Shown: positions 1,737-62,149 of the stretch, one piece after another
Position numbering within the stretch: position 1 is the first letter of the stretch
Layout: the number at the start of each line of letters is the position of its first letter
Origin: Actinobacteria bacterium HGW-Actinobacteria-5
Lineage (GTDB): Bacteria; Actinomycetota; Actinomycetes; Propionibacteriales; Propionibacteriaceae
Assembly: GCA_002843035.1 (NCBI GenBank)
Contig: PHEV01000003.1
Span: 7,890 to 71,889 of the forward strand
Length of the DNA: 64,000 nt
Reading direction: 5' to 3'
The notes under the pieces: model-generated
Seen by the model: only the letters and a program-made list of their open reading frames with translations
Told to the model about the DNA's origin: nothing
The model's database searches: none
Translations under genes and position numbers: made by a program

Positions 1737-1795
1737 CCACAGCGGCCGGCGGGCCCGATTATTCCGCGGAATAACAGGGCCGCCGGCCGCTGTGG
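1737..1795. terminator. long GC-rich hairpin centred on palindrome copy 1 (TTATTCCGCGGAATAA, 1759-1774)
   Basis: ccacagcggccggcgggccc (1737-1756) pairs with gggccgccggccgctgtgg (1777-1795). It starts 23 nt after the stop at 1714. Confidence 0.5.
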
Positions 1796-1975
1796 CGGCT
1801 GGTCAACCCTGTTCCAGGCATGACTTAGGGGACATAGGGGATGTGCCTTTGGCAAGGGGTCTGGCCGGAATTGTGGATAACTTTCGGGCTGTCCCCAGAT
1901 TTGTGGTGACGTCTGTGGCCATGTCGTCGCGGTGGCCTTCTGTGGTCTCAACAGACCCAGAAGGAGGTCCGCGCG

Positions 1976-2770
1976 ATGAGCGTGGCATCAGCACTGAACC
2001 TCAACCGCGACGCGGTGCAGACCATCGTCGTGCAGCAGTGGTCCGGGTGGTCCGCGCGGCTACCGGCGCTGCTGCGGGTTGATCGTCCTCTCGATCTGGA
2101 CCGTTGGCTCCGCGATGCCGATCCGGCCGCCGCCGACGACGTCCTTTTGTCGCTGGCACAGCTGGCCGCGGCGGATGGCGGCGACGATGTGGACGCGGCC
2201 AGAGTGTTGGCCTGGGTGCTGCTGCCGGCGGCATGCCGGGTCGCGGGCAGCTTCGCCCGGGTCGCCGACATCGACGAGCACGTGGCGGCGCAGCTGTGGA
2301 TCGAGGTGCGCTCGTTCTCCTGGCAGTCCACGTCGAAGGTGGCGGCGAACATCGCCGGACGGCTCCGCAAGCACTTGGGTACGGATCTGTCCGATCTGCC
2401 CTCGGCAGAGGTTCCCCCGACCTCGCTGGCCGACACCGGGGTGGTGGCCACCCTCGCGCGCCAGTACGGCGTGGGCGGCCCTGAAGACGGCCCGTCACCG
2501 ATGGATGAGCTGCTGTCGGTGCTGGAGTGGGGGTGCCGCCGCGGACTCATCACCAGCGAGGACCGGCTCCTGCTGCTGGACGTCATAGCGACCGCGGCCG
2601 ACGACCCCACCTGGCATCGCTCCGGTGCCGCTCTCCTCGGCGACAGAGTCTCGGACTCAGTCGGCACCCACTGGGGGATCAGTGGTCGCACCGTACGCCG
2701 CCGGGCGGCCGCTTCCATCAGCGCGCTCGCCCAGGTCGCCGCCGGCCAGAGGCAGGCGGGCATCGCATGA
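1976..2770 (+). CDS. putative HTH regulator (sigma-70 region-4-like C-terminus)
   Basis: The ATG is preceded by a gaaggagg SD. The C-terminal GISGRTVRRRAAASISAL segment looks like an HTH. GC3 is high. Confidence 0.6.
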   Translation: MSVASALNLNRDAVQTIVVQQWSGWSARLPALLRVDRPLDLDRWLRDADPAAADDVLLSLAQLAAADGGDDVDAARVLAWVLLPAACRVAGSFARVADIDEHVAAQLWIEVRSFSWQSTSKVAANIAGRLRKHLGTDLSDLPSAEVPPTSLADTGVVATLARQYGVGGPEDGPSPMDELLSVLEWGCRRGLITSEDRLLLLDVIATAADDPTWHRSGAALLGDRVSDSVGTHWGISGRTVRRRAAASISALAQVAAGQRQAGIA

Positions 2771-3030
2771 CTGTCCGGAATCCCCGCCCCCGCTGGCTTA
2801 CGGCAGTGGACACGAAAGGCGGTGGAAGCTCAATGACTGACGACCCCGACATGGCGGCGGTCCTGTTTGCCGAGATCGCCACCGAGCAGGCCGTGATCGA
2901 CCAGCTCGCCGAGGGCACCGCGAAGCTGCGGCGCATTCAGCAGGCCAAGCGTGACTTGGCCCTGCTGGATCCCTCCGCGCTGCGGGCAGCGCTGGAGCGC
3001 CGCCACGCCAGCCTCGTGGAGGGCGCATGA
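2767..3030 (+). CDS. small hypothetical protein (alternative start 2833)
   Basis: There is an ATGA overlap with the upstream stop at 2767-2770. A second ATG at 2833 has the SD gaaaggcggtgg. The sequence is coiled-coil-like. Confidence 0.55.
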   Translation: MTVRNPRPRWLTAVDTKGGGSSMTDDPDMAAVLFAEIATEQAVIDQLAEGTAKLRRIQQAKRDLALLDPSALRAALERRHASLVEGA

Positions 3031-3824
3031 CCACCGGCATCGTGGCGGTCGACGAACTCGCACTCGCCTACCGGGCCGCTGTCAACGGCGAGTTCCGTAA
3101 CGGACACCGACATGCCACCACCCCGACCGCCGCCCGTGGGCAGCATCTGGCCGCCACCTGGGAGCCTGCCCCCGCCGAGCAGGTTGTCCTGGTCGCGGGC
3201 AGCATGGGGTCTGCTGGAACCTCCACCGTGGCCTTGGCGGTGGCCAGCTGCGCCGCTTCCGCCCGGGTCGTGGAGTGCTGCACGGTCGCGTCCTCAGGTC
3301 TGGCGGCGGCGAGCAGCGCCGAGCTCGGCATGACCGTCGACGGCTGGGTCCAGGGCTCTCGAGGTGAGGTGCTGATCGAGCGGCGCGGAGACCGAGTGCC
3401 GTCGGTGGACCTGCTGCCGTCCCCGGCGCCCACCTCGGTGCCGGTCACCGTGCTGGACTGCTCCTGGGACCTCGACCTTCTCGTCGCGAGCGGGGCATGG
3501 CTGGGCGACCTGGCCCGCACCCTGCCCGCGGTCGCGGTCGTGACCAGGCCGACCATCCCGGGCATGCGCCGGCTGGAAGTGGCGATCGCCCTGCTGGGGG
3601 AGCACCGCGTGCACGCCGTCGTCGTCGGCGTCGACAGGCGTTGGCCCCGGCAGGTGGAACAGGCGATGGGCGCCGCAACGCGACGGCTCAGGTCTGAAGG
3701 CCGGCTCACCGGCGTACCCAGTGACCCGCAGCTCGCCACTGCCGGTGTCACCCCCGATCCGCTGCCGGCCGCCGTCCTGGCCGCCTGCTCCGACCTGCTC
3801 ACCGTGTTGAAAGGAACCCGATGA
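3027..3824 (+). CDS. ParA/CpaE(TadZ)-like protein with degenerate Walker A
   Basis: ATGA overlap at 3027. LVAGSMGSAGTSTVALAV occupies the P-loop position but lacks the lysine. The overall MinD/ParA-like layout is inferred. Confidence 0.55.
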   Translation: MTTGIVAVDELALAYRAAVNGEFRNGHRHATTPTAARGQHLAATWEPAPAEQVVLVAGSMGSAGTSTVALAVASCAASARVVECCTVASSGLAAASSAELGMTVDGWVQGSRGEVLIERRGDRVPSVDLLPSPAPTSVPVTVLDCSWDLDLLVASGAWLGDLARTLPAVAVVTRPTIPGMRRLEVAIALLGEHRVHAVVVGVDRRWPRQVEQAMGAATRRLRSEGRLTGVPSDPQLATAGVTPDPLPAAVLAACSDLLTVLKGTR

Positions 3825-4147
3825 ACACCATTCTTGCCGGCATTTCCGCCGCGGCGACCACCTACCTGGCGCCGGCCGTGATCCCGCTGAAGATCTGCCC
3901 GAAGGCGCCGCCCGGCGCCCAGCAGTACGCCGACGACATCACCGGCTACGTCCTGTGGGGGGTGATCATCTTGTTCAGCGTCGGCGTGATCGTCGCCATC
4001 GGAGGCATCGTCGCCGGACGGATCTTCAACATGCCCCACGCCTCCAAGGCGGGGATCGTCGGGATCTTCGTCGTCCTGCTGGCCGCGATCGCCTTCGTGG
4101 TCGCCCCCGGCATCGTCGACAGCATCCTCGGCAACGGCTGCATCTAA
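3821..4147 (+). CDS. small membrane protein (VirB2/TrbC-like position)
   Basis: ATGA overlap at 3821. Two or three hydrophobic helices are present, and the gene sits in T4SS operon context. Confidence 0.6.
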   Translation: MNTILAGISAAATTYLAPAVIPLKICPKAPPGAQQYADDITGYVLWGVIILFSVGVIVAIGGIVAGRIFNMPHASKAGIVGIFVVLLAAIAFVVAPGIVDSILGNGCI

Positions 4148-4161
4148 GGCTGGCTGCCCTC

Positions 4162-6473: not shown

Positions 6474-7979
6474 ATGGCCGTCTATGGCGAGTACACCCGG
6501 GACCGGGTCGGCATGTTCTTCGGGCTCACCGGGGCACAGCTGATCACGCTGGTCGTGACCGCCGTCCCCGCGCTGTGGGCCTTCCAGCAGGAGGAGTGGG
6601 GCCTGCTGGCCGGCTTCACACTGCTGTGGGTTGTGGTGTTGGGGATGGTGACCGTCCCGATCCGGGGCCGGTCCGCGATCGGCTGGATGGTGGCGGCCAC
6701 GGCGCACGCAGCCGGGACGGTGATGCGGTGGACGCAGTGGCGTTCGAAAGCGTCCAAGGGCCAGGTCGACGACCTGGCCGAGCCCGACCTGCCCGGTGTC
6801 CTGCAATCGGTGACGGTCCACGACGGCCCTCCCCAGGGCCCGACCAACACCCGGTTCGCGGTCGTCCAGGACCACGCCGGCCGGGTATGGGCGGCCACCG
6901 CCTCGATCACCCATCCCGGCCTGGCGCTGGCTGATGCAGCCGAGCGGGACAGCCAGGGCCGCGGCCTGGCGACCCTGCTGAACGCCTGCGCCCGCACCGA
7001 GCTGATCTCCGAGGTGCTGTTCATGGTCCGATCGGTGCCCGACGACGGTGCCGAACGCGAGCAGTGGCTGGCCCGCCACCGCTCGACGTCGGCGCCCGCG
7101 CTGGCGAATCTGGTGAACGACCAGATGGCCGCCACGCTCAGCCAGGCCAGCGTCCGCACCGAGGCGTTCTGCACGATCGTGGTGCCCGAGGACCGACTGG
7201 CGAAGGAGGCCAAGGAGTTCGGCCGCGGGGTGGACGCCCGGGCCCGCGCCATGGCCATGCTGATGGCCGAGGTGGAGGGCCATCTCCGCACCGGCATGCG
7301 GATGAGTTCGGTGGAGTGGCTGACCTCACCGCAGCTCGCCGCCGCGGTCAGGACCGGTTTCGCCCCCGGCGACAGGGCCGGCATCGTCGAGGCGTTGGCG
7401 GCCCGGGAGGCCGATCCCGCAGTCAACGCGGAGGTGCCGTGGGCCCAAGCTGGCCCGTCCGGCGCCGACCTGGTGGTGCGTCACTACGCCCACGACGCCT
7501 GGCACAGCATCTCCGCGACGGTGAAGCTGCCCGCCAAAGGCGCTGTGTTGGGTGCGCTGGCCCCTGTCCTGGTTCCCACCGAGCCGGGTGAGCGCCGCTC
7601 GATGGTGACGGTGTTCCCGATTCTCGCCCAGTCCACAGCCGACAAGCAGGTCCAGTCGGCGGAGTGGGCCGCAGACATGGGGGAGGGGCTGCGCTCCAGG
7701 GCCGGAATGAAGACCAGGGCCAGAGACCGCACCGCGGTGGCACGCACTCGCGGCCTGGACGCCAAGCTCGCTTCCGGCAACGCGATGGTGAGGCCGTACG
7801 CAGTCGCCTGCGTCACGGTGCCCAAGACGCAGCGCATCGCGGAGTTCGGACGAAGGCTGGACGCGTCGATCCGCCGCGCCGGGTTCGCCCCGCTACGCCT
7901 GGACCTGTCCCAGGACGCCGGCTTCGCCGCCGCCAACATCCCGCTGGGCCTGGGGCTGCACCGGAAGTCCGAGCAGTGA
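6474..7979 (+). CDS. membrane protein of the actinobacterial T4SS (SCO6880-like, VirB3/VirB4-N analogue)
   Basis: SD ggggaggag is present. Two N-terminal TM helices are seen. The gene lies immediately upstream of, and is translationally coupled to, the VirB4-like ATPase. The family name is from memory. Confidence 0.6.
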   Translation: MAVYGEYTRDRVGMFFGLTGAQLITLVVTAVPALWAFQQEEWGLLAGFTLLWVVVLGMVTVPIRGRSAIGWMVAATAHAAGTVMRWTQWRSKASKGQVDDLAEPDLPGVLQSVTVHDGPPQGPTNTRFAVVQDHAGRVWAATASITHPGLALADAAERDSQGRGLATLLNACARTELISEVLFMVRSVPDDGAEREQWLARHRSTSAPALANLVNDQMAATLSQASVRTEAFCTIVVPEDRLAKEAKEFGRGVDARARAMAMLMAEVEGHLRTGMRMSSVEWLTSPQLAAAVRTGFAPGDRAGIVEALAAREADPAVNAEVPWAQAGPSGADLVVRHYAHDAWHSISATVKLPAKGAVLGALAPVLVPTEPGERRSMVTVFPILAQSTADKQVQSAEWAADMGEGLRSRAGMKTRARDRTAVARTRGLDAKLASGNAMVRPYAVACVTVPKTQRIAEFGRRLDASIRRAGFAPLRLDLSQDAGFAAANIPLGLGLHRKSEQ

Positions 7980-9505
7980 ACACCGCCACGAAGGCCCGCT
8001 CCGGCCGACGGGTCGACCGGCTGCTCGCCGACTTCGGCCACGAGGTGCCGACCATCGCGCCGGCCGGGCCTGTCGTGCCGGAGCCGAGGCTGTTCCGGCC
8101 GGTCGGCCGGCGCGGCGAGCATCGCCCGGATCGGGGATGGTCGCCGGCGCCGGCCCCGGTGTCGGTGTGGCGGATGACCTCGGACCAGGCGCCGGTGCTG
8201 TGGCCCTTCGTCACCAGCCCGGCGATTCCCGCGCGCGGCGCCCAGATGGGCATCGACTTCCTGTCCCGCACGAGTTTCCATGCTGACCCCTCCGGGTGGG
8301 TGCTCGACCCCACTATTCCGGTGTCGAACCCGAACATGTTCACGTTCGGCAAGCCGGGGATGGGCAAGTCAGCGACGGTGAAGGCGTTCCTGCTGCGGAT
8401 GATGGGGTTCAACTACCGCGCCTTGATCCTGGGAGATCCGAAGGACGAGTACGAGCCGCTGTGCCGGGCGGTGGGGGTGGCGCCGATCGCGATCGGGCAG
8501 GGTCTGAGCGCTCGGATCAACCCGCTCGAGTTCGGGCCGCTGAAGACCGGATGGGAGCAGCTCGGCCCAACCGTGGCCCAGGAGCGGGCGAAGGTCGTCT
8601 TCTCCCGCTGGCTGACCTTGATCCGCGGCCTGGTGGGGTCCCAGAAGATCGGGTCGGTACCGGTGCCGTTCGGTCCGAGCGAGGAGACCGTGGTCGACGC
8701 GGCGTTGAAGATGCTCACCGGCTACACCGACGGGAACACCCGCCTGCAGGAGACAACCATCCCGGCGCTGTGGCACCTGCTGGATGACCCGCCGGCCGAA
8801 CTCGTCCAGCTATGCAGGTACGCCTCCGAGCGGCACTTCCTCGACGAGACCCGGCTGCTGAGGGATGCGCTCGGCAAGATGGTCGGCGGCACCCTGAAGG
8901 GCCTGTTCGACGACCACACCACGATCGACGTGGACTGGCAGGCGCCGATCCAGTCGCTGTCGCTGTCCCGGCTGGAGGGGCTCGGCGACGAAGCGATCGG
9001 CATGGCGCTGCTATGCCTCAACTCCTGGGGCAGGGCGATGCGGGAAGTCGCCGCCCCCGGCGACATGCGGATCGTGGTTCGCGACGAGGTGTGGAAGATC
9101 ATGCGCCTCGGCCTGGATGCGGTGAAGAGCCTGGACGCCGACCTGCGGCTGAGCCGGCGAGACGGCGACATCCAGTATGCGATCGGGCACAAGCCGACCG
9201 ATCTGGAGAGCGTCGGCGACTCTGGCTCTCAGGCGGCCCAGATCGCCAAGGATCTCCTGCACCTGGCAGACACCAAGATCCTCCACGGCCAGGACGCCGC
9301 CGTGGCACGGCACCTGGGAGAACTGCTGGAGCTGACCGAAACCGAGATCGGCTGGATCACCGACTGGTGCCGGCAGTCACCGGGCCGGGCGGTCTGGAAA
9401 GTGGGCGACTGGGTGTTCAAGGTCCAGACGATCCTCCACCCCGCCGAACGGGCCCTGACCTGGACGAACGCTTCGCTGGAAGCAGCAAGCGAGAAGTTCG
9501 GATGA
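7976..9505 (+). CDS. VirB4/TraC-like conjugative ATPase
   Basis: The GTG at 7976 overlaps the upstream TGA (GTGA). Walker A is GKPGMGKSA and Walker B is IVVRDEVWK. Confidence 0.8.
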   Translation: MNTATKARSGRRVDRLLADFGHEVPTIAPAGPVVPEPRLFRPVGRRGEHRPDRGWSPAPAPVSVWRMTSDQAPVLWPFVTSPAIPARGAQMGIDFLSRTSFHADPSGWVLDPTIPVSNPNMFTFGKPGMGKSATVKAFLLRMMGFNYRALILGDPKDEYEPLCRAVGVAPIAIGQGLSARINPLEFGPLKTGWEQLGPTVAQERAKVVFSRWLTLIRGLVGSQKIGSVPVPFGPSEETVVDAALKMLTGYTDGNTRLQETTIPALWHLLDDPPAELVQLCRYASERHFLDETRLLRDALGKMVGGTLKGLFDDHTTIDVDWQAPIQSLSLSRLEGLGDEAIGMALLCLNSWGRAMREVAAPGDMRIVVRDEVWKIMRLGLDAVKSLDADLRLSRRDGDIQYAIGHKPTDLESVGDSGSQAAQIAKDLLHLADTKILHGQDAAVARHLGELLELTETEIGWITDWCRQSPGRAVWKVGDWVFKVQTILHPAERALTWTNASLEAASEKFG

Positions 9506-37097: not shown

Positions 37098-37397
37098 GGT
37101 CGGCCCTCCTCATGGTGGAGCGGGCGTGCTCACCGAGATAAAGCGCGGCGACCGGAGCGTGTTGTGACACCCGGGTCGGTGTCCGGATCGCGGCACTGTG
37201 CCGGCATAAGGGGGAAGGCGGCGTGCCGGGCGCCCGTGCCCGGCGGGGGAAAGGCGGTGGTGGCGGTGTTGGATGCAAGCTCACTGCGCCTGGTTCGACC
37301 CGTGTCGGCAGCTCGGAAGGGGCCAGAATGGTTCGGCGACGTGTTGAGGCGCAGCCCACGCTGGAGGCGTGGTGGTTCGAGCCGGAGGAGGCACCAG

Positions 37398-42758: not shown

Positions 42759-42798
42759 CCAGGAGGGGACCTATTCCGCGGAATAGCCCCCCTCCTGG
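42759..42798. terminator. hairpin containing palindrome copy 3 (core 42772-42785)
   Basis: ccaggagggg (42759-42768) pairs with cccctcctgg (42789-42798) around CTATTCCGCGGAATAG. It begins 2 nt after the TGA of the giant gene (42755-42757) and is convergent with the 42812..43045 gene. Confidence 0.6.
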
Positions 42799-43330: not shown

Positions 43331-43344
43331 TATTCCGCGGAATA
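43331..43344. repeat. TATTCCGCGGAATA palindrome copy 4
   Basis: Exact 14-mer in the divergent intergenic region between the 42812..43045 (-) gene and the HNH gene (43367, +). Confidence 0.95.
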
Positions 43345-43366: not shown

Positions 43367-43876
43367 GTGGCGCTGTCAGCGGCTGCTGCAACACTCGGTC
43401 ACGTGCATCCCGATCTGGCCCGCGCCCTGGCCGATCCGGGTGTGGCCCAGCGCTACCTGGACAAGGTCGTAACGATCCCGGGCAGTGAGTGCAGCTGGTG
43501 GATCGGCGCGATCAGCGGGGGCGGACACGGACGGTTCTGGGTCGGCGACAACCTCGTTGTCGTCGCTCACCGTTTCGGATTCGCCCTGGCCCAGGGACTG
43601 GAGGCTCTCCGCGCGGCGCCGCTGCTCGCTCACCGCTGCGACAACCCGCTGTGCCAACGAGTCCATCCTGACCACCTTGTCGCCTCAACCGCGGCACGCA
43701 ACCGCCAGGAATGGGCGATCCGCCGCCACGTCGCCGGGCTCCCTCTCAGCGACCCTCGTGGCTCACGGGGCCGGGCTGAGGCGCTACGGGCGCTCGTACG
43801 CCGCGACCCGTCCGGTGTTCTGGCGGACCATGCGCAGATGGTGGTCCGGTTCGGCGAACAGCGCCCGCTGTTCTAG
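43367..43876 (+). CDS. HNH endonuclease
   Basis: CSWWIGAISGGGHGRFWV...VVVAHRFGFAL...LAHRCDNPLCQRVHPDHLVASTAARN matches the HNH_3-type signature. Confidence 0.8.
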   Translation: MALSAAAATLGHVHPDLARALADPGVAQRYLDKVVTIPGSECSWWIGAISGGGHGRFWVGDNLVVVAHRFGFALAQGLEALRAAPLLAHRCDNPLCQRVHPDHLVASTAARNRQEWAIRRHVAGLPLSDPRGSRGRAEALRALVRRDPSGVLADHAQMVVRFGEQRPLF

Positions 43877-46721: not shown

Positions 46722-47042
46722 TCAGTGCAGGGCGCCGAGCTCGACGAGAAGAACGCCGGCGATGATGAGTGCGATGCCGCCCATCATGAGCGCGGTGAGC
46801 GGCTCCTTGAAGAGGGCTTTGGACGCGACGGCCGTTAGGGCAACTCCGGACGCTGCCCAGATGCCGTAAGCGACACCGAGGCCCAGGCCCTCATTAAGGG
46901 CGAGGGTGAGAAACGCGAAGGCCAGGAGGTAGCCGCCGGCGACGGCGGCGTAGTAGGCGCGGACGCCAGTAGCTGCCATGCGCAGCGAGAGGGTAGCGCT
47001 GACCTCGGCAATGATGGCTCCGAGGAGGAACAGGTAAGCCAT
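46722..47042 (-). CDS. SMR-family small multidrug/quaternary-cation efflux subunit
   Basis: 106 aa with 4 TM helices and a conserved membrane Glu (AIIAEVSATLSL). The start codon shares one nucleotide (47042) with the stop of the partner gene. Confidence 0.85.
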   Translation of the reverse strand: MAYLFLLGAIIAEVSATLSLRMAATGVRAYYAAVAGGYLLAFAFLTLALNEGLGLGVAYGIWAASGVALTAVASKALFKEPLTALMMGGIALIIAGVLLVELGALH

Positions 47043-47389
47043 CAGGTGGCTTCTTCGAGGTTCTTGACCGCGTGCTGGGAGCCGAGTTCGACGGTGAGGA
47101 CGCCGGCAATGATGAGGACGATGCCGACGCCCATGAGTGCGGTGAGGGTTTCATCGAAGATCAGCGACGACATCACGGCGGTGGTGGCGACACCGAGGGC
47201 GCCCCAAATGCCGTAGGCGACGCCCAGCGCCATGCCCTGACGCACAACGAGGGCGAGGAGAATGAACGAGGCGATGTAGCCAGCCGCGACGAGCACGTAC
47301 AGTCCGGGTCGATCGAGTGCTCCCTTCAGCGACAGCGAACCGGTGACCTCGCTGAGGATGGCCCCCGCGAGCAGTAGCCACTTGGTCAT
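47042..47389 (-). CDS. SMR-family efflux subunit (paired partner)
   Basis: The ATG at 47389 follows the SD aggaga. The sequence MTKWLLLAGAILSEVTGSLSLK has 4 TM helices. Confidence 0.85.
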   Translation of the reverse strand: MTKWLLLAGAILSEVTGSLSLKGALDRPGLYVLVAAGYIASFILLALVVRQGMALGVAYGIWGALGVATTAVMSSLIFDETLTALMGVGIVLIIAGVLTVELGSQHAVKNLEEAT

Positions 47390-47946
47390 GAGTTCTCCTG
47401 GATGAGGTGGTGTGCGAGTGCTCGAATGGCGTCGGTGTCCTCGTCGGATAGGGCGATGCCGTTGCCGGCGGTGTTGAGCCAGATGCCGTCGGCCAAGAGT
47501 CGGACGCCGTGGAGGCGGGCCCGCTGGTCGGCCGGAAGGGTCTCGGGGACGTCGACCCAGGCCCCCATGCGGCTGTTCCATCGCTCGGTGAGCGGCTCGC
47601 GCAGGCGGGGGTCGGTGAACATGACCAGGTCGCCGTAGTCGAACGGCCCGTCGCAAGCCCAGTCAACGTAGGCGGCGAGGCGTTCGCTGATCGTGGGTAC
47701 GTTTGGGTTGGTGGTAGCCAGGCGGGCGGCCAGATCCCGCTCGTAGCCGTCGAGGAGGTGGTCGATGACGGCGGTCATCAGTGCTTCCTTGGTTGGGAAG
47801 TGGTACATCAGGCCAGCCTTAGTGATTCCTGCAGCGCGAGCTGCGGACACCAGGGAGACAGAGGCGCCAGTGCGGGCCCACGCAAGAGTGCTGGCGAGAA
47901 CGCCGCCTCGCGCCGACGGTCGGTGGGCAGGTGCACTAGTACTCAT
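47386..47946 (-). CDS. TetR-family transcriptional regulator
   Basis: The ATG at 47946 gives the HTH SLVSAARAAGITKAGLMYHFPTKEAL. ATGA overlap with the SMR gene. Confidence 0.85.
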   Translation of the reverse strand: MSTSAPAHRPSARGGVLASTLAWARTGASVSLVSAARAAGITKAGLMYHFPTKEALMTAVIDHLLDGYERDLAARLATTNPNVPTISERLAAYVDWACDGPFDYGDLVMFTDPRLREPLTERWNSRMGAWVDVPETLPADQRARLHGVRLLADGIWLNTAGNGIALSDEDTDAIRALAHHLIQENS

Positions 47947-48330: not shown

Positions 48331-48573
48331 TCAGGTGGGGGTGATCCTTGCTCCTGGGCGGAGGCCGGTGGCGTGGTCGACCTGGGTCCAGCGCTTGCCG
48401 GCGTTGAACTCTGCTTCCATGCGTTCGCACCAGGAGACGAGGGCCTGTTCGGTGAACCGGCCGGCGGTGAAGCCGGGGTCGAGGGATTGCTGCAGGCCGG
48501 TGACGGTTGAGCGGACGCGGTCGGCGACTTCGGGGTCGATGCGTGCGGCCCAGGGGACGCGTCGGGTGGTCAC
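48331..48573 (-). CDS. small ParA-associated hypothetical protein
   Basis: GTGA overlap with the parA stop. The protein is 80 aa. Confidence 0.5.
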   Translation of the reverse strand: MTTRRVPWAARIDPEVADRVRSTVTGLQQSLDPGFTAGRFTEQALVSWCERMEAEFNAGKRWTQVDHATGLRPGARITPT

Positions 48574-49331
48574 AGCACTCCCCTGCCTTTCAGCCAGTCG
48601 TGGACGTCGTGGTAGTCGCCGGTGACCTTGTCGGTGGGTGACCAGCTGGGCAGCGGAACGGCTTGGGCGTGAGCTTCGGCGACGCGGGCGCTGCGGCGCA
48701 CGGGGGGCGCCACGAGGGGCTGGTAGGTGGTGTGCAGCAGTCCCATGACGTCGCTGTAGATCTTGCCGTGGGTGGCTGGCGGCACAATGCACGGCACGAT
48801 GCCGGCGAACACCAGGTTGGGATTGAACGCCTCCTGGACGGCCTGGACGGCGTCGAGCATCTCGGGCACGCCGGCGATCTCCTTCATGGTGGGCTGGGTT
48901 ACGGTCAGGATCGCGTTGGCGGCAACGAGGGCGGAGATGGTGATCGTGGAGACCGATCCGGGGCAGTCGATGAGGACGACGTCGGCGTCGATGCCGGTCA
49001 GCGCCAGGCGGAGCCGCTGTTCGCGGCCGATCACGCTGTTCAGCTCGATCGCGGCCGCGTCGAGGGTCCGGTTGGACGGGACCAGCCGGACGCCCGTCGT
49101 GCGGGTGGGCAGCAGCGCCTCGTCCAGGCTTGCCCGTCGCAGCAGCACGTCACCGAGCGTGATCTGGACCTCGTCGGGCGGGTAACCCAGCCACGACGTG
49201 GCGGTGCCCTGGGCGTCGGCGTCGACGACGACCACGCGACGGGTCTGCCCGATCAGGTCAGCGAGGGTGACCACGGTGGTGGTTTTGCCGGCGGACCCGG
49301 ACGCGTTCGCGACGGCGATGATGCTGGTCAC
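48570..49331 (-). CDS. parA: ParA-family partition ATPase
   Basis: The GTG at 49331 follows the SD ggggagga. Deviant Walker A is ANASGSAGKTTT. VVVDADAQG and VLIDCPG are also present. Confidence 0.85.
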   Translation of the reverse strand: MTSIIAVANASGSAGKTTTVVTLADLIGQTRRVVVVDADAQGTATSWLGYPPDEVQITLGDVLLRRASLDEALLPTRTTGVRLVPSNRTLDAAAIELNSVIGREQRLRLALTGIDADVVLIDCPGSVSTITISALVAANAILTVTQPTMKEIAGVPEMLDAVQAVQEAFNPNLVFAGIVPCIVPPATHGKIYSDVMGLLHTTYQPLVAPPVRRSARVAEAHAQAVPLPSWSPTDKVTGDYHDVHDWLKGRGVL

Positions 49332-49333: not shown

Positions 49334-50797
49334 TCAGTCCTCCCCGTCGGTGATGGCGTCGAGCCGGGCCTGTTCCCACTCGGTGGGCAGGTAGCCGGCG
49401 ACCCGGTGCAGCAGCTCGAGGTAGTACCGGTGTACCGGACCCCAGGCCAGGTGTTCGGGCCGGGTGTGGGTCTCGAACGAAGCCAGGGCGATCACCCATG
49501 CGTTCGGGGCGCGCTGCGCGTCCGGGGCCACGGTCAGCGACTTGCGCCACGTCCAGTCGCCCAGCCCGTCGGGGGCGAGTCCGGCCTCGCGGGCGAGGTC
49601 GTAGGCCAGCGCCGTGGTCTGGCTGCCGAGGGCCAACCCGGTCAGCGCCATGGCAACCAGGGCTTCGGTCAGGGTGGCGGCCGGCACCTTGGCGGTGGCA
49701 GCCAGCCGGAGTGCCTGGCCGCGTGCGGAGATGGCCGCCTTGCGGTTCCTCGCCTCGAGGGTCTGCTTGTCGTCCGGGACGGTGCGGGTGCGCCGGATCA
49801 GGTAGTACGCCGGCTCGGAACGGGTGGCCGACACCAGCAGGTTGTTCTCCGCCGCCGCCTTGCGGATGTCGGTGGCTGCGTAGATCTGGTTGCTGTAGCG
49901 GGCATCTCCCAGGCGAGCGAAGACGTTCTCGCAGTACTCGGCGCCGAGTTCCTCGGCGCGCGCCTTCGCGGCGGCCTGCCCGGCCTCGACCTCCCTGTCT
50001 GTCGTCACCCGGCGCACGACAGCAGCCAGGTCGACTCGGGTTGCGACCGCGGCGCTGGGGGCGTCGTCCTCGTCGTCGAGGTCCTCGTCGTCGGCCGGCG
50101 GCGTCGGGGCTTCGGCGCTGATCACCTGGGCGACCTGCTCCCCCGCCCTGGCCACCAGGTCGGGATCCTTGATGGCGGCCAGCTTGAGCGCTTCGCCGAC
50201 CTCGATCCGCCCGTAGTCGACCGCGGCCTGGATGGATTCGGGCAGGGCCAGCAGTTTGAGGCGCTTGGCGACGTGGCTTTGGGAGACGCCGGTCTGTGCG
50301 GCGATCGCCTGCTGGGTCATCTGACGGACCTCGATGAGGTGGCGGTACTGGCTGGCCTCCTCGATCGGGGTGAGGCGCATCGCCTTCGCGGTGTGGAGCC
50401 GGATCATCGCCTCGTCGACGTCGACACCACGCACCACGTAGGGAACGTCGGGCCGGCCAGCACTGCGGGCGGCCGCGAGCCGGCGATGTCCGTCCTGGGC
50501 GACCCACGCCTTGCCGGCGACAGCGTCGGCGTCGTCGGGGTGGGCCTCGAGCCACTCCCCCACCGGTGTCAGCAGGATCGGCACCATCACCCCTACCTCG
50601 CTGACCGAGGGCACCAGGTCGGCGATGTTGACCGACCGTGCCTGCGGGTTGCGTGGGTTCGCCGCGACGTCGTCGACGTGGATGGTCTGCCCGGCGCCGG
50701 CACCCCCCTGCATGGTCTGTACCACGCTGCTGGCCTTGCGTTCGGTACGGAGCTGCGGCACCCCGTCCAATCCTCGTGCCCGCGTCATCCGGCCCAC
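49334..50797 (-). CDS. parB: ParB/KorB-like partition/DNA-binding protein (large, 487 aa)
   Basis: The ParB N-terminal domain has ...VPILLTPV...VAQDGHRRLAAA (Arg patch). The HTH is MTQQAIAAQTGVSQSHVAKRLKLL. Confidence 0.85.
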   Translation of the reverse strand: MGRMTRARGLDGVPQLRTERKASSVVQTMQGGAGAGQTIHVDDVAANPRNPQARSVNIADLVPSVSEVGVMVPILLTPVGEWLEAHPDDADAVAGKAWVAQDGHRRLAAARSAGRPDVPYVVRGVDVDEAMIRLHTAKAMRLTPIEEASQYRHLIEVRQMTQQAIAAQTGVSQSHVAKRLKLLALPESIQAAVDYGRIEVGEALKLAAIKDPDLVARAGEQVAQVISAEAPTPPADDEDLDDEDDAPSAAVATRVDLAAVVRRVTTDREVEAGQAAAKARAEELGAEYCENVFARLGDARYSNQIYAATDIRKAAAENNLLVSATRSEPAYYLIRRTRTVPDDKQTLEARNRKAAISARGQALRLAATAKVPAATLTEALVAMALTGLALGSQTTALAYDLAREAGLAPDGLGDWTWRKSLTVAPDAQRAPNAWVIALASFETHTRPEHLAWGPVHRYYLELLHRVAGYLPTEWEQARLDAITDGED

Positions 50798-52981: not shown

Positions 52982-53920
52982 GTGCTGCCCACCACGATAC
53001 CTCTGCCTGCCCGGCGACCGTCAAGTGGCACGCCGTGCCTAGTCACTTCTGGTTCGCACTACACCGGCTACGCGAAGCTCGGCTGCCGTTGTGACGCTTG
53101 CGGGGCGGCTGCCGCTCCGGTTCATAAGCGTGCCCGGCACGCTTTTGTGACGGGTCAGCCGATCCTGATCGGCGCCGCGGACGCCGCAGTTCACTTGGGA
53201 GTGCTGGCTGCCGCGGGGATGAGTCGTAGCGAGATCGAGCGCCGGTCCGGGGTGAATCGGGTGACCTTGCTGCGGATTGTGCGCGGTGACCTGTCCCGGG
53301 TGAACCGCAGGACCGCCACAGCGATCTTGGCCGTGGAGCCGGTGCCGAGCGCGGAGCAGGCGGCGGGCTGGGTCGATGGCACCGGCACCAGACGTCGGCT
53401 GCGAGCGCTGATGGCGGCAGGGTGGCCGGCTAGCCGGCTGGCGGTGCGTCTGGGCACGTCGCAGTCGCATATCCGCCGGCTGGTGGAGGACGGCCATCGC
53501 TGCTCTGCGGTGACCAGGGCCCAGGTCGTCGACCTGTACGACGAGCTGTGGGACGTGTCGCCGCCGGAGGACAAGTCGGCCCGGCTTGCCCGCCGGCGTG
53601 CTCAGCTGCAGGGCTGGTCGCTGGCGATGGCGTGGGATGACGACGAGATTGACGATCCCGCGGCCGCGCCTCACAACCCCGCCGGCGGGCGCAGCGCCCT
53701 GCTGGAGAACGTGGTCTGGCTGGCCGACCTGGGCGACACCCTGCCCGGTATCTGCCTGCAGCTCGGCGTGCAGCCTGAGAGCATCTGGCGGGCCGCCTAC
53801 CGGAACGATCGGCTGGACATCTGGGCTCGGCTCACCGCCCCGAGCGTATCCACCCGGCCGGCGTCGACCTGGCCCTCCGACCAGCGCGGCCGCGGAGGCC
53901 GCGCGAGGGGGGCGGCGTGA
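52982..53920 (+). CDS. multi-HTH DNA-binding protein (phage/plasmid regulator type)
   Basis: The N-terminal GYAKLGCRCDACG motif is followed by repeated HTH-like segments (SRSEIERRSGVNRVTLLRIV and ASRLAVRLGTSQSHIRRLV). Confidence 0.6.
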   Translation: MLPTTIPLPARRPSSGTPCLVTSGSHYTGYAKLGCRCDACGAAAAPVHKRARHAFVTGQPILIGAADAAVHLGVLAAAGMSRSEIERRSGVNRVTLLRIVRGDLSRVNRRTATAILAVEPVPSAEQAAGWVDGTGTRRRLRALMAAGWPASRLAVRLGTSQSHIRRLVEDGHRCSAVTRAQVVDLYDELWDVSPPEDKSARLARRRAQLQGWSLAMAWDDDEIDDPAAAPHNPAGGRSALLENVVWLADLGDTLPGICLQLGVQPESIWRAAYRNDRLDIWARLTAPSVSTRPASTWPSDQRGRGGRARGAA

Positions 53921-55185
53921 CCGCCACTCTCGCCGATCGCGACGTCGCGGCGGAGTTCGAGCAGATGGTGCGCCGCGAGTTCGGCGCCCCACCTGCTGCG
54001 CCGGCCGACGAGGCCGGCCTGGTGGGCGTGTGGCTGACGCACAGGGTCTGCGCGGAGGAGCATCAGACCCGTGTGTACGCGCGCTGTCTGACTGATCGGC
54101 GCGTGCTGCCCCGCTGGCATCAGGACGACCGTGGGGCCCGTAACCACCATCGCGGCTTCCATGTGGAGGCCCCTGCCGGCGCATATCGGGGGGTGACGGC
54201 GTGGATGGGCCGGGATCACTGGCTGGCTGTGGTGGTGCCGTTGGCGATCCAGCAGCGGCCCGAGGTGCTCAAGCGGCACGGTGTCAGCCCGGACGTGATG
54301 CGGCGCTGGGCACGGGTCAAGAGCGGCTACGCCGCCCAGAAGTCGGGCCGGCGGTGCATCGTGCGGCCGGTCACCGTGGCGAGCGTGGTCGGGGTCACCG
54401 AGCGGCAGGTTCAGCGGTGCAACGCCGCTGCCCGTGAACTCGGCCTGGAGCAGTTGATCCTAGAGGGGCGGATGTTGGATGTGGATGAGCGCAGCTCGCT
54501 GCGTCCGTTGGGGTCTCGGCAGCGGGGGCTGGCCAGCGAAGTGGCGCTCACTATCCCCAGCTGGCTGCGGTGCCTTGTGGGTTCTGTCACCCCTTCCAGA
54601 GGAACCCGGCTTCCTAGGAATTCTCACCTTTGCAACACTCCACATGACGGCCTTCGGCCGATCCAGAAGGACGGCGCTCCGCGCCGGCGCAACGAAAAAG
54701 GAGCTCGATCGAGGTGGCGGGCCCGGGCTGTGGCCTCGGAACTGGCCGTCAGGCTCGACTGGTTGGCCGGAGAGGCACGCCGACGGCTGATCCCACCCCT
54801 GATGAGGTTCGTGACCGCCGATGAGCCATGGACGGTCGAGGACCTGGTGGCCGGGATACACCAGGTGAGCGCTGGGCGGGGCGAGATCCAGCCTGACATG
54901 ATCCGTACCCGTCCAGCGATCCTGCTCGCAGGGATCCTGCGGCGCCTGGACACGGTGGCCGACCACCCCCGGCTTGCCGGCCCGTTCATCCCCTCCGACA
55001 CCGCACCCTGCGGCGGCGGCGACTGTGACGGCTACGGCTGGATCAACGGCTTGGACGACACGGGCCGGCCCTGGGCCAAACCCTGCCCCGACTGCGCCCC
55101 GGCCGTCCGCCGCGGCGCCGCCCAACCGCCGGTCGATCCGTGGGCAGCCGAGACCACACCCGGGACGAACGGGCACCCGTTCTGA
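53917..55185 (+). CDS. hypothetical protein with HTH and C-terminal Cys cluster; possible replication/initiator role (speculative)
   Basis: GTGA overlap. VASVVGVTERQVQRCNAAARELG is an HTH-like segment. The C-terminus reads CGGGDCDGYGWING...PCPDC. Confidence 0.55.
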   Translation: MTATLADRDVAAEFEQMVRREFGAPPAAPADEAGLVGVWLTHRVCAEEHQTRVYARCLTDRRVLPRWHQDDRGARNHHRGFHVEAPAGAYRGVTAWMGRDHWLAVVVPLAIQQRPEVLKRHGVSPDVMRRWARVKSGYAAQKSGRRCIVRPVTVASVVGVTERQVQRCNAAARELGLEQLILEGRMLDVDERSSLRPLGSRQRGLASEVALTIPSWLRCLVGSVTPSRGTRLPRNSHLCNTPHDGLRPIQKDGAPRRRNEKGARSRWRARAVASELAVRLDWLAGEARRRLIPPLMRFVTADEPWTVEDLVAGIHQVSAGRGEIQPDMIRTRPAILLAGILRRLDTVADHPRLAGPFIPSDTAPCGGGDCDGYGWINGLDDTGRPWAKPCPDCAPAVRRGAAQPPVDPWAAETTPGTNGHPF

Positions 55186-55224: not shown

Positions 55225-55240
55225 TTATTCCGCGGAATAA
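55225..55240. repeat. TTATTCCGCGGAATAA palindrome copy 5
   Basis: Exact 16-mer; the extended palindrome cgattattccgcggaataatcg spans 55222-55243. It lies between convergent genes (stop 55185 on +, stop 55256 on -). Confidence 0.95.
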
Positions 55241-59789: not shown

Positions 59790-59809
59790 TCTATCCTCGG
59801 GAGGCTGTC

Positions 59810-61006
59810 GTGATTCAGAGCCCGTACTCGCCTGGGTCGCTTCCTGTTTACCTGGCTGGACGGGGTCATGAGCTGCAGGTGGTTCGTGATCGGCTGGCTC
59901 GCGTGGAAGCCCTCGGTAGATCGGGTGGACCGCTGCTGGCATTCTATGGCCCGCGAGGGTACGGCAAGACCTCTCTGCTACGGGCCGCCCAACGTGAAGC
60001 GCTCGCCGACGGCTATCTGACCGTCTGGGTTACCGGCAGGGAGGACGCCCCGCTCGCCCCGGACCTCGCCGGGGCGCTCGCGGAGGAGGTCCGGGACAGC
60101 TCTCTGCTGGCTCAGGCCAGCGCCCTGCTCGCCTCACTGGACAAGGTCCAGGTCGAGCTTGGCGTACCTGGTGCCAAGATCACCGCCGACACCGCTGCGC
60201 GACGACCGGGGGACGCCATCGAGGGCAGCCTCAAGCAGGCTGCCCAGCTGGCCCGTCAGCACGATCGTCACGGCCTTGCCGTCTTCGTCGACGAGTTCCA
60301 GGACGCCCCCACGGCCGATCGGCGATCCCTCCTGATCGCCCTGCAGCACTTCGACGGTGCACCCAAGGGGCAGCCGGTGGCCGTCATTGCTGCCGGCCTG
60401 CCCGCGCTTCCCAGCGCGGTGACCGCTGCGGCCACGTTCGGTGAGCGGTCAGACTTCCACGAACTGCGCCTGCTGAATGATGTGGCCACCGTCGAGGCGC
60501 TGAAGCTCCCCGCTGCGCAGCTCGGCGTGCACTGGGCCCAGGAAGCACTCGAGTACGCAATCGAGGCGACCCGGGGATACCCGCACGAGATCCAGCTGCT
60601 CGGCGAGGCGACCTGGAACGTCGCCAGGCCCGCCCAGGGAGACACGATCACCATCGGGCACGTCCGCAGCGGCCAGGAGACGGCAGAACGCCGAATGGAC
60701 CAGCTCTTCCAGGCCAGAATCGCGAAGACCACTGACGATCAACGCCGACTCTTGGACGCGATGGCCTCCCTCGGTGACGGCCCCGCAACCCGCGGCAGCA
60801 TCGCGGCGCTTCTGGGGGTGCCCACCGAGGCGCTGAGCCGGCCCCGCCAGGAACTCATCGGCCGCGGTCTCATCGAGCCCGCCGGTCATGGCCGCCTCCA
60901 GTTCACAGTCCCCGGATTCGCCGCCTTCCTGCGTGGCCAGACCGAAGACACCCTCGAACTGGAGACGCAACCGGACCGCCGGGGGACCGGTTATTCCGCG
61001 GAATAA
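59810..61006 (+). CDS. AAA+/STAND-like ATPase with C-terminal winged-helix (Orc1/Cdc6- or DUF234-type)
   Basis: SD gggagg is followed by a GTG. Walker A is FYGPRGYGKTS and Walker B is LAVFVDEFQ. The C-terminal wHTH-like segment is RRLLDAMASLGDGPATRGSIAALLGV. Confidence 0.75.
   Translation: MIQSPYSPGSLPVYLAGRGHELQVVRDRLARVEALGRSGGPLLAFYGPRGYGKTSLLRAAQREALADGYLTVWVTGREDAPLAPDLAGALAEEVRDSSLLAQASALLASLDKVQVELGVPGAKITADTAARRPGDAIEGSLKQAAQLARQHDRHGLAVFVDEFQDAPTADRRSLLIALQHFDGAPKGQPVAVIAAGLPALPSAVTAAATFGERSDFHELRLLNDVATVEALKLPAAQLGVHWAQEALEYAIEATRGYPHEIQLLGEATWNVARPAQGDTITIGHVRSGQETAERRMDQLFQARIAKTTDDQRRLLDAMASLGDGPATRGSIAALLGVPTEALSRPRQELIGRGLIEPAGHGRLQFTVPGFAAFLRGQTEDTLELETQPDRRGTGYSAE
60991..61006. 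repeat. TTATTCCGCGGAATAA palindrome copy 6
   Basis: Exact 16-mer; the extended palindrome cggttattccgcggaataaccg spans 60988-61009. It overlaps the last codons and stop of the ATPase gene. Confidence 0.95.
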
Positions 61007-61133
61007 CCGCGCCTCGGCCCTCCCGGATGGGGCCCGTTAGCGCTCAGCGCAGGTGTGGACGCGGCTCTGCCCGACGGCCAAGCTTGCCCAACGAGATTGT
61101 TGGGTATAGTGGTTGGTGGAAGAGGAGGAAGCC

Positions 61134-61523
61134 ATGACCACCACTGCCGCACCTCGCCGTCGCCACACTCGTGTCGCGCATGTCACCGGGGGAGCGTTGA
61201 CCGCGGAGCGGACCGGGTTCGTGATCGAGGCGTTGGGTAGCGTCACGGCCGTGGCGGAACTTCTGGAGGTGTCGAAGTCCCAGCCGTCGCGGTGGCGCAC
61301 CGGCGCGGAGCAGCCATCGCCGGCGAAGGCGCGCGAGCTGATCGACCTCGATCACGTCCTCGCCCGAGCCCTGCTGCTGTGGACTCCTGCGGTGGCGATC
61401 GACTGGCTGGCCGGCAGCAACGCCTACCTCGACGGCGCGCGGCCAATCGACGTCCTCCGGATCCGCGGGGCAGCGGAGGTCCTCGACGCCCTGGACGCGG
61501 CCGCCGCCGGCGCCTACGCCTGA
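61134..61523 (+). CDS. Xre-type antitoxin with DUF2384-like C-terminal domain (partner of RES toxin)
   Basis: SD gaggaggaa is followed by the ATG at 61134. The HTH is SVTAVAELLEVSKSQPSRW. The C-terminus reads WLAGSNAYLDGARPIDVL. Confidence 0.75.
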   Translation: MTTTAAPRRRHTRVAHVTGGALTAERTGFVIEALGSVTAVAELLEVSKSQPSRWRTGAEQPSPAKARELIDLDHVLARALLLWTPAVAIDWLAGSNAYLDGARPIDVLRIRGAAEVLDALDAAAAGAYA

Positions 61524-61530
61524 CACGACG

Positions 61531-62106
61531 GTGCTCGTCTACCGGGTCTTCCCCTACCTGCCAACGGCCAAGCCGGACGAGTCCGGCGGGCCGATGTACC
61601 TGCATCGGCCCCAAGGCAGGGGCAGGCTGGACAACGCCGAGTACGACACGTGGTACTTCGGGATCACCCCGGAGACCGCCATCGGAGAAGCGTTCGGCGA
61701 CCTGGCTGTGTGGCGGGACGAAATGTTCGAGTTCCCGTCGCTGCCCGGCGCGCGGCGCGCACTCGGCGTCTTCGAGATCCCCGACGACGCGGCCGTGCTC
61801 GACCTCGACGACGCACGCAGCCTGCTCGATCGCGGACTCCGGCCCACCCAGGTCGTCGCCCGAAACCGGCCCACCACCCAAGCGTGGGCGCTGCGGATCT
61901 TCGGCGAGACCGGGCCGGACGGCCGCCGACTCTGGGCCGGCGTCCGCTGGTGGTCCTTCCAGCGCCCCCACTGGACCGTGATCGCACTCTGGGTACCTGC
62001 CGCAGCGGCACCGACCCACACCTGCCTGCGGGTCGATACCCTCACGATCGACCACCCGGCAGTCGTCGACGCCGCCCGATCCCTCGGCAAACGACGCCTC
62101 CCGTAG
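61531..62106 (+). CDS. RES-domain toxin (MbcT/ParT-like NAD-targeting family)
   Basis: Arg (GRGRLDN), Glu (TPETAIGE) and Ser (WWSFQ) occur in RES spacing. The gene starts 8 nt after the antitoxin stop. Confidence 0.75.
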   Translation: MLVYRVFPYLPTAKPDESGGPMYLHRPQGRGRLDNAEYDTWYFGITPETAIGEAFGDLAVWRDEMFEFPSLPGARRALGVFEIPDDAAVLDLDDARSLLDRGLRPTQVVARNRPTTQAWALRIFGETGPDGRRLWAGVRWWSFQRPHWTVIALWVPAAAAPTHTCLRVDTLTIDHPAVVDAARSLGKRRLP

Positions 62107-62133
62107 CCGACACAGATGCCGGCCAACACCGGA

Positions 62134-62149
62134 TTATTCCGCGGAATAA
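62134..62149. repeat. TTATTCCGCGGAATAA palindrome copy 7
   Basis: Exact 16-mer located 28 nt after the RES toxin stop (62106) and upstream of tnpB. Confidence 0.95.

Follow-up and report, generated by a model that had tools for sequence, protein, structure and literature searches.

A palindrome dispersed over a conjugative element of Propionibacteriales as a candidate binding site for its large ParB-family protein

Introduction

What is the function of a short palindrome that recurs without a mismatch at widely separated places of a mobile element? The question is raised by a 64,000-nt stretch of DNA from Actinobacteria bacterium HGW-Actinobacteria-5 (contig PHEV01000003.1, positions 7,890 to 71,889), which we analyzed as a whole and call the window. 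The window is a conjugative plasmid or an integrative and conjugative element (ICE) of Propionibacteriales with ~70% GC (64-73% across its whole length), and it contains seven exact copies of the 14-mer palindrome TATTCCGCGGAATA, which start at 1760, 28458, 42772, 43331, 55226, 60992 and 62135 and are referred to as sites 1 to 7. An earlier note, made from the sequence of this DNA, had left three readings open: a network of ParB/KorB type or of another regulator encoded by the element, a mobile repeat resembling repetitive extragenic palindromes or miniature inverted-repeat transposable elements (REP/MITE), and a family of terminators constrained in sequence. A literature search with the sequence ATTCCGCGGAAT found no paper. 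We compared the sites within the window and with those of related contigs and loci (cited below by our handles, L followed by a number). The comparison favors the ParB/KorB-type network: the motif is specific to one plasmid family, its sites are orthologously conserved and cluster around the par operon in distant relatives, it shares its register with parS and with the Noc binding site (NBS), and its arms co-vary with a recognition helix. The copies are thus probably plasmid-specific binding sites, similar to those of ParB or KorB, for the 484-aa ParB-family protein of the element.

Seven exact copies of a palindrome lie outside genes or on a stop codon

All seven coordinates in the earlier note were exact on re-scanning. 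Dinucleotide-preserving shuffles gave an expectation of 0.02 matches to the 14-mer against the seven observed, and no further copy with up to two mismatches was found in the whole window. At sites 1, 5, 6 and 7 the palindrome extends to the 16-mer TTATTCCGCGGAATAA, which confirms the four 16-mer copies counted before. When the seven copies were aligned together with flanks of 80 nt each, the 14-mer alone proved invariant, and hence the copies are not long repeats. The close clade has 31 unique sites, which agree in the whole 14-mer save for one variant of the center; their half-site profile, c(65%)-G(68%)-A(73%)-T(85%)-TATTCCG, is in agreement with the flank consensus proposed earlier. The information in this profile falls off outward over about 20-22 bp. 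This decay looks like a protein footprint, with the core TATTCC-GC-GGAATA and a full extent of about cGATTATTCCGCGGAATAATCg.

Genes were called by a codon-usage score trained on long open reading frames (ORFs), and their products were then scanned against Pfam. According to these rough calls all seven copies are intergenic or on a stop codon, as the earlier note had stated; with an intergenic share of 13% of positions, the probability that all seven fall outside genes is about 3e-5. In contrast, the labels "convergent" and "divergent" that the earlier note attached to copies 2 to 5 depend on small, low-scoring ORFs of 69, 77 and 98 aa on the minus strand. Judged from these sequence comparisons, the pattern is non-random and under purifying selection.

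Site 1 (1760..1773) is located 45 nt after the stop codon of gene 2..1714 and 202 nt before gene 1976..2770, the start of an operon resembling a type IV secretion system (T4SS). It forms the apex of a long hairpin (1735-1797), and its orthologues in all four related contigs have flanks that differ yet stay complementary. Site 2 (28458..28471) is found 203 nt after the N6/N4 methyltransferase gene 27271..28254 and 17 nt from the stop codon of a weak 69-aa ORF on the minus strand (28489..28698) resembling a helix-turn-helix (HTH) protein; the site is kept in L012 at 94% identity. Site 3 (42772..42785) follows the stop codon of the methylase-helicase gene (37223/37847..42757) by 14 nt at the apex of a hairpin (42750-42807), and its orthologues in L118, L119, L120, L121 and L122 lie 1-11 nt past the stop codon of the same gene. 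Site 4 (43331..43344) is located 58 nt upstream of the 157-aa gene 43403..43876, and its orthologues in L118, L120 and L121 are 47-56 nt upstream of that gene; the distances of sites 4 and 1 to the gene starts downstream of them are conserved. The product of this gene is itself conserved, with the signature AHR...CDNPLCQRVHPDHL...N, and by eye looks like a nuclease of the His-Me/HNH-finger type, with Pfam matches only below threshold (zf-His_Me_endon, E = 0.04; HNH_3, E = 0.44).

Site 5 (55226..55239) is 40 nt after the stop codon of a backbone gene (53917..55185), and its orthologues in L076, L118, L119 and L120 are 15 nt past the stop codon of the same gene. Site 6 (60992..61005) overlaps the end of the STAND/AAA_16 ATPase gene (59903..61006), where the 16-mer (60991-61006) provides the last codons and the TAA stop codon (...Y S A E stop). 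The same arrangement is seen in L057, where the 16-mer gives the end of ORF 127..1272. Site 7 (62135..62148) follows the RES toxin gene (61531..62106) at a distance of 28 nt. A TnpB element has inserted after TTAC ~45 nt to the right of site 7, and site 7 is present without this element in L041. The right flanks of sites 6 (to ~61075) and 7 (to 62218) are paralogous over ~70 nt. This flank repeat forms a direct repeat around the Xre-RES module, and its similarity reaches the first codons of tnpB.

The motif belongs to a plasmid family

The 16-mer was searched for in 185,579 bacterial and archaeal species, each represented by one genome. The scan returned 84 stretches, nearly all of them singletons in unrelated, mostly low-GC genomes, and more than one 16-mer per contig was found on only four contigs, all from Propionibacteriales. 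These are JAJTBJ010000003.1, with 92-96% nucleotide identity to the window, DAINOM010000032.1 of Propionicimonas (80-85%), CAYNLD010000016.1 (about 68%) and NZ_BAAAGO010000041.1 of Micropruina glycogenica (about 64%). In viral contigs (IMG/VR) the 14-mer occurs as singletons only, 33 in number, which is the chance level. As recurrence is restricted to homologous contigs, the motif is a feature of this plasmid family rather than of the host chromosome or of phages. The earlier note had considered that the motif might be found all over the host chromosome; no such spread was seen among the species genomes.

It had also proposed to align orthologous elements, and this alignment shows that the sites remain exact while adjacent genes fall to about 64-68% nucleotide identity. 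Sites 2, 3, 4, 5 and 7 were found in the relatives covering those regions, and the relatives carry 3-5 copies per 21 kb. At orthologous sites homology is kept on both flanks, and thus the motif is not generally a rearrangement breakpoint.

The element encodes a large ParB-family protein

The ParB-family gene pointed out in the earlier note (49334..50797) is upheld, with a different start: the gene on the minus strand most likely begins at the ATG at 50788 (49334..50788), and the 484-aa product begins with MTRARGLDG. An R-G-L motif seen by eye in this N-terminus is a candidate ParA-stimulating peptide. Its ParB N-domain and HTH are followed by a C-terminal domain of about 250 aa that is helical. 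Pfam assigned HTH_ParB with E = 2.9e-17, and ParB_N scored 24.7 bits, just under the cutoff of 26.3 bits. In the PDB, phmmer matched the protein to ParB and Noc structures (6T1F, 6SDK and 7NG0), and the alignment with Caulobacter ParB and Noc spans the N-domain and the HTH. An AlphaFold model has a mean pLDDT of 79; its first ~210 residues match ParB, Noc and KorB structures in Foldseek, and the C-terminal ~230 residues had no match in the Foldseek list. The protein is a true ParB-fold N-terminal domain plus HTH. The gene for a 253-aa ParA ATPase (48570..49331, minus strand; Pfam AAA_31 and CbiA) abuts parB as the second gene of the par operon, and parA adjoins parB in all relatives examined.

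We compared the palindrome with the sites of characterized relatives, using the NBS and parS sequences and the specificity positions from PMC7383237. The motif TTATTCCG|CGGAATAA has the same length and register as NBS, TATTTCCC|GGGAAATA, and parS, TGTTTCAC|GTGAAACA. T0, T3, T4 and C5 of the half-site are common to all three, C6 and the TTCC..GGAA core are common to the motif and NBS, and 10 of the 16 positions are identical between the motif and NBS. The chance of a match at five of eight half-site positions is a few per cent by our estimate, which was not computed by a tool, and the match is hence a lead and not a proof. At the specificity positions the window ParB has Q173 (as in Noc), R179 (K in Noc), A184 and G201 (R in Noc). 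At the conserved DNA contacts it carries V instead of K171, K instead of N178 and L instead of R204; such altered contact residues would be expected of a ParB with a new specificity.

Site arms and recognition helix vary together

Loci were fetched around graded ParB homologues. The ATTCC/GGAAT arms persist over a wide divergence of ParB, and the center of 2-3 nt varies. L123, whose ParB is 56% identical to that of the window, has TATTCC-GT/AT-GGAATA; L127 (42%) has TATTCC-AAT/ATT-GGAATA, that is, TATTCC-AWT-GGAATA; and L128 (34%) has TGATTCC-AGT/ATT/ACT-GGAATCA in eight copies within 18 kb. L135 (34%) carries GGTGATTCCACTGGAATCACC, and L138-L151 (about 30%) carry GGTGATTCCGNCGGAATCACC in 3-4 copies within 3-9 kb. 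Two loci have other arms. L125 contains ATTTTGCAAAAT twice and CCTATTTTGCGAAATAGG once (arms ATTTTGC(G)AAAT), again at stop codons, and L126 contains ATTACGGCGTAAT at the place equivalent to sites 3 and 4.

Wherever the arms are ATTCC, the recognition helix of ParB keeps the form S-Q-x-H-[VI]-[AS]-K-R. The ParB of L128, 34% identical overall, is identical at 14 of 14 positions in GVSQSHVAKRLKLL. The helix SQGHISNRLKML of L125 (...H-I-S-N-R-L-K-M-L) goes with the ATTTT-type arms, and the helix SQPLIARRLKLL of L126 (S-Q-P-L-I-A-R-R) goes with the arms ATTACGGCGTAAT. This co-variation of the recognition helix with the site arms is suggestive, though not conclusive.

The distant clades also tie the sites to the par operon, which is bracketed by sites in L128, L135 and L138-L151. 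In L147, where the motif matches all fall within 6428-8994, one site precedes the parB start by 133 nt, another is on the stop codon of the third gene, and another is inside the parB ORF (at 7714 in ORF 6561..7997). Throughout the clade of L147 this intragenic site is kept although its right flank diverges. A site inside parB, in the middle of an operon, favors DNA binding and speaks against termination. Such a position has a precedent in the parS located inside spo0J of Bacillus subtilis. In L121 a site directly follows the third par gene.

A separate pair of repeats was seen in L125. Two stretches of ~70 nt (15072-15150 and 16517-16595), each with the palindrome TACAGCGYGCGCTGTA, flank a second gene with a ParB_N domain (421 aa), beside DprA-like and ArdC genes, and look like duplicated promoter-operator regions of another regulator.

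The par promoter carries a different class of repeats

Two features of the par operon were added to those in the earlier note, namely repeats at its promoter and a small third gene. Directly upstream of parB lies an AT-rich repeat similar to parS or to iterons, GTGTTTACAACGTTTACAACGTAAACAC (50810-50837), which is unique in the window, has a 9-bp period and is composed of GTTTACAAC twice in direct orientation plus an inverted GTAAAC. Repeats of a 9-bp period, specific to each lineage, are present at the same place in seven of eight parB upstream regions (for example GTTTGC/GCAAAC in L121, GTTCTC/GTTCAC in L125 and TAATGTAGG in L127), and none is obvious in L128. The third gene (48331..48573, minus strand) encodes an 80-aa protein that by eye resembles ribbon-helix-helix (RHH) proteins. 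A Pfam scan of the window's own 80-aa protein found nothing; precomputed CB_ParB_C matches exist for its orthologues in L121 (marked weak) and L128.

Lineages with ATTCC arms in common differ strongly in the N-terminal strand of the small protein, and we rejected this protein as the binder of the palindrome because its DNA-reading strand varies where the arms do not. The promoter repeats are a separate class of site, probably an operator or centromere of the small RHH-like protein. Given these repeats and the variable small protein, the economical assignment gives the repeats to the small protein and the palindromes to the large ParB. A similar pair is known from the type Ib centromere of pCXC100, where nine unspaced 9-bp repeats are bound by an RHH ParB (PMC3074162). 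The repeats of the window likewise have a 9-bp period and lie beside a short ParA and a small protein, but they number just two or three.

Some sites are embedded in long hairpins

The sites were folded as 64-nt RNAs and compared with shuffled sequence. The z-scores were -7.5 for site 1 and -4.65 for site 3, in line with the long GC-rich hairpins described for these copies in the earlier note, and -2.5, which is marginal, for site 6. The remaining sites 2, 4, 5 and 7 fold no better than shuffled sequence (z from +1.55, at site 2, to -1.43). A terminator scan of 42500-62400 found neither canonical terminators nor T-tails at sites 3-7, and the flanks of sites 1 and 2, inspected by eye, show no T-tail. 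A scan for sigma-70 promoters gave one match, and the promoters of this organism are not callable.

In relatives, the orthologue of site 1 shows a compensatory G:C to A:T change in L058 and is a perfect 40-bp palindrome with unrelated flank sequence in L072, and a perfect 36-bp palindrome lies between convergent genes in L121. A subset of the sites is thus under selection for a long stem, and most simply these would be terminators without a U-tract. Since an exceptional fold is limited to sites 1 and 3, and marginally 6, terminators do not explain the family. The terminator reading of the earlier note, therefore, holds by fold for at best two or three of the seven sites and fails on the missing T-tails and on the distant-clade site inside the parB ORF.

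A model for the sites and its alternatives

We infer both the binding of ParB to the palindrome and the effect of this binding. A dimeric protein encoded by the element, most likely the ParB at 49334..50788, would recognize the palindrome as double-stranded DNA, with one HTH of the ParB dimer on each half-site (T-T-A-T-T-C-C-G), as in the ParB-parS and Noc-NBS complexes. ParB would then nucleate at the scattered sites and serve in partition together with the adjacent ParA, in the control or insulation of transcription units by region, or in both. The sites would be retained at the few positions that tolerate them, chiefly within some tens of nucleotides past a stop codon. At sites 1 and 3 and in some relatives, the palindrome would be extended outward into a long GC-rich hairpin, which probably doubles as a terminator, possibly a bidirectional one.

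Several observations weigh against this assignment. Six of the seven sites lie on a stop codon or at most 50 nt after one, compared with 17% of intergenic positions (P = 2e-4), and in relatives the sites are likewise 1-45 nt after stop codons. Simple ParB binding explains neither this placement nor why the flanks at sites 1 and 3 co-evolve so as to keep the long hairpins. The sites closest to the par operon of the window are 4.4 and 5.0 kb away from it; the lack of a site within 4 kb of the operon in this clade may be because an insertion of ISL3 and TetR/SMR genes displaced sites 3 and 4. The co-variation of helix and arms amounts to two changed lineages among about eight and is confounded by phylogeny. 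The cytidine triphosphate (CTP) boxes of the window ParB, located in a low-confidence region of the model, are non-canonical, with GHRR, invariant in the family, in place of GERR and HTAKAMR in place of ENLQR, and hence a sliding-clamp mechanism is not to be assumed. Lastly, another DNA-binding protein, the Xre-type double-HTH protein (53147..53920), is conserved in L118, L119, L121, L123, L125, L126 and L127.

That Xre-type protein, or another protein of the backbone, may be a plasmid-wide repressor or insulator with the palindromes as its operators, ParB acting at the promoter repeats only. The par-promoter unit GTTTAC/GTAAAC is similar to a canonical parS half-site and might itself be what ParB binds, and the fixed position of site 4 and its orthologues, 47-58 nt upstream of their gene, would suit an operator. 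We nevertheless consider this arrangement rather unlikely: no Xre-like homologue was seen in the 18-kb contig of L128 despite its eight sites, the short contigs of L135 and L147 show only a par operon with sites on either side (no search for the Xre protein was made in L147), the 9-bp period of the promoter repeats better fits an RHH protein, and it is the ParB helix that co-varies with the arms. Rather unlikely, too, is the idea that ParB itself, beyond partition or instead of it, is a punctuation factor, which would act at post-stop sites, often in the part of a long palindromic stem close to the loop, as a roadblock or insulator that closes transcription units or keeps them apart, in a plasmid-wide, protein-dependent termination like that of phage stoperators, or would read the extruded hairpin or cruciform; its degenerate CTP boxes and its extra C-terminal domain of ~250 aa would then reflect that job. 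A primary function of the folded strand was also considered, either as (bidirectional) terminators or 3′-stabilizing hairpins or as single-stranded DNA hairpins in conjugation, for example priming signals for the primase fused to the relaxase. The placement after stop codons in the window and in relatives, the very stable hairpins at sites 1 and 3, the flanks that differ but pair in orthologues (the compensatory pair of L058 and the 40-bp and 36-bp palindromes of L072 and L121), a free center of 2-3 nt that could serve as a loop, and the DnaG/Toprim primase domain of the relaxase all suit such a function, and yet it is unlikely to account for the sites, four of which fold no better than shuffled sequence and none of which has a T-tail. 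A hairpin moreover does not need an exact stem sequence, and here the stem is exact; its information decays as in a footprint, and a mid-operon site inside the parB ORF is conserved.

Two further readings involve mobile DNA. Close relatives differ in accessory modules beside the sites, the Xre-RES module is bracketed by sites 6 and 7 with their ~70 nt of common right flank (the one observation that still suits an insertion of modules), a zeta-toxin module of L128 is also flanked by sites, and in L121 sites are found at three of about five synteny breaks. These observations recall core sites of site-specific recombination bounding gene modules, such as pdif of Acinetobacter plasmids or attC of integrons, with the arms GATTATT / AATAATC and a 6-bp CCGCGG center. 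However, both flanks are homologous at orthologous sites, the sole tyrosine integrase lies in a segment (21780-25865) missing from the closest relative, which keeps the motif, and the symmetric center, 2 nt long in some lineages and 3 nt in others, would give no directionality, so that recombination sites are quite improbable. We regard as very improbable a REP/MITE-like palindrome spread by a RAYT or an IS200/IS605-type transposase. The repeat is indeed short, palindromic and intergenic, a TnpB element adjoins site 7, and a right flank is common to sites 6 and 7 and to L041-435. Against this, the other sites have no flank homology, orthologues are stable at 64-95% identity, host chromosomes lack the motif, the scanned genes included no Y1 transposase, and L041 keeps the site without the TnpB element; the REP/MITE reading of the earlier note is therefore rejected.

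Other proteins and structures of the window were rejected as partners of the motif. The integrase 24533..25633 is not the cognate recombinase, as its segment is missing from a motif-bearing relative with 94-96% identity. In L119 the 157-aa protein is truncated, and the loci of L125, L127 and L128 gave no match to it. The methylase-helicase is missing from the L125 region, which has analogous palindromes. The motif is not the left-end hairpin of the TnpB element, for it occurs in L041 without tnpB, the other six sites are not flanked by insertion sequences (IS), and the TnpB copy of L118 is no independent insertion.

Other genes of the window

The Pfam scan identified a VirB6-like gene, a lytic transglycosylase, a DUF4192 gene and a T4 coupling protein on the plus strand at 2-15.4 kb, as well as a prepilin peptidase. 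A TrwC relaxase-helicase-primase fusion, which includes the DnaG/Toprim domain, is encoded on the minus strand (16107..21623). The segment 21780-25865, which contains a 510-aa protein, a Cro/C1-type HTH protein and the only tyrosine integrase of the window (24533..25633), is missing from L012, a Propionicimonas contig with 94-96% identity. Its two ends lack the motif, and the segment is probably an inserted element within the plasmid.

A resolvase, a Type ISP restriction enzyme and two DNA methylases, one of which is fused to a helicase (37223..42757), were also found. The window encodes a 416-aa sigma-70-family factor (34242-35492). In L121 a motif copy lies 18 nt after the stop codon of the sigma-70-family gene; the region downstream of this gene in the window is unrelated to that of L121 and has no motif copy. 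The ISL3 transposase gene (45225..46547) and the TetR/SMR efflux genes (46722..47808) form an accessory insertion that separates sites 3 and 4 from the par operon. A megablast search with 20 kb of the window (37-57 kb) found no close relatives in PLSDB and INPHARED; its only close matches were these IS and TetR/SMR parts (44000-48200) on Rhodococcus, Arthrobacter and Nocardioides plasmids, and no phage matched. Scans of the window against Rfam (gathering threshold) and for tRNAs found nothing.

The right part of the window contains the Xre-type double-HTH gene (53147..53920), the conserved backbone gene of 422 aa (53917..55185), the STAND/AAA_16 ATPase gene (59903..61006) and the Xre-RES toxin-antitoxin pair (61197..62106; toxin 61531..62106). 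It ends in an insertion sequence of the IS605 family with TnpB only (62191-64000; tnpB 62198..63772). Three 32-nt direct repeats right after the tnpB stop codon (63771, 63832 and 63895; spacing 61-63 nt) may be part of the guide-RNA or right-end region of this element. L118 carries an 87% identical copy, truncated beside a deletion of window positions 55406-62590; it is the same IS and not an independent insertion.

Discussion

The best-known network of this kind is that of IncP plasmid RK2, in which KorB, a ParB-family HTH protein, is encoded beside a ParA (IncC) and a small DNA-binding partner, and binds the operator OB, TTTAGCSGCTAAA, with a free central base, in many copies over a conjugative plasmid of ~60 kb (PMC11790492). 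The window has dispersed copies (seven in 64 kb), a ParB with ParA and a small partner, and a ParB model that matches KorB structures. It differs in that the KorB domain of Pfam gives E = 0.0098 for its ParB, which is below the cutoff, in the non-canonical CTP boxes GHRR and HTAKAMR, in the gene order parB-parA-small, in a small protein that is RHH-like and without similarity to KorA, and in its actinobacterial host. Moreover, OB is placed relative to promoters, whereas the sites of the window are mostly just after stop codons. With NBS, TATTTCCCGGGAAATA, and parS, TGTTTCACGTGAAACA, the motif shares a perfect 16-bp palindrome in the same register, and its ParB agrees with Noc in Q173 and in a basic residue at 179 (PMC7383237); half-site positions 1, 2 and 7 differ, and the system is plasmid-borne. 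The architectural match to parS and KorB operators drawn in the earlier note is thus borne out in its register for parS, and more so for NBS, but neither homology to KorB nor a KorA-type partner was found.

Other systems resemble the arrangement in part. In N15, an enterobacterial phage-plasmid with a type Ia Sop system, single palindromic SopB sites are likewise scattered over the replicon and not beside the par operon, but they number four and show no relation to stop codons or hairpins. The stoperators of cluster A mycobacteriophages, as reportedly described by Brown and colleagues in 1997, are many 13-14-bp repressor sites in short intergenic spaces, at which the bound repressor is said to block transcription. 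Like the motif of the window, they are one type of site repeated throughout a mobile element of actinobacteria; however, they are asymmetric, orientation-dependent and bound by an immunity repressor instead of ParB, and our motif occurs in viral contigs only as singletons. The DNA uptake sequences of Neisseria, which are recognized during uptake, often form inverted pairs in terminators and are present in thousands of copies chromosome-wide. They are a precedent for a recognition site that is also a terminator, being exact protein-recognized sequences in hairpin arms downstream of genes, but they are not palindromic in themselves.

If the assignment to ParB is true, the palindrome with the half-site TTATTCCG and the protein would form a new ParB-site pair for an uncharacterized clade of large ParB proteins, which are found on conjugative plasmids of Propionibacteriales and other high-GC actinobacteria that are common in activated sludge and soil metagenomes. 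The pair would be a Gram-positive counterpart to KorB of IncP plasmids. Its relatives would offer a natural specificity series, with ATTCC, ATTTT and ATTAC arms and centers of 2 or 3 nt paired with changes in the helix, which would be useful for studying how the specificity of ParB and Noc evolves, and the site would be orthogonal and usable as a DNA-labeling tag like other ParB-parS pairs. The placement of the sites close to stop codons and their embedding in hairpins raise the question of whether ParB-type proteins may help to delimit the transcription units of plasmids.

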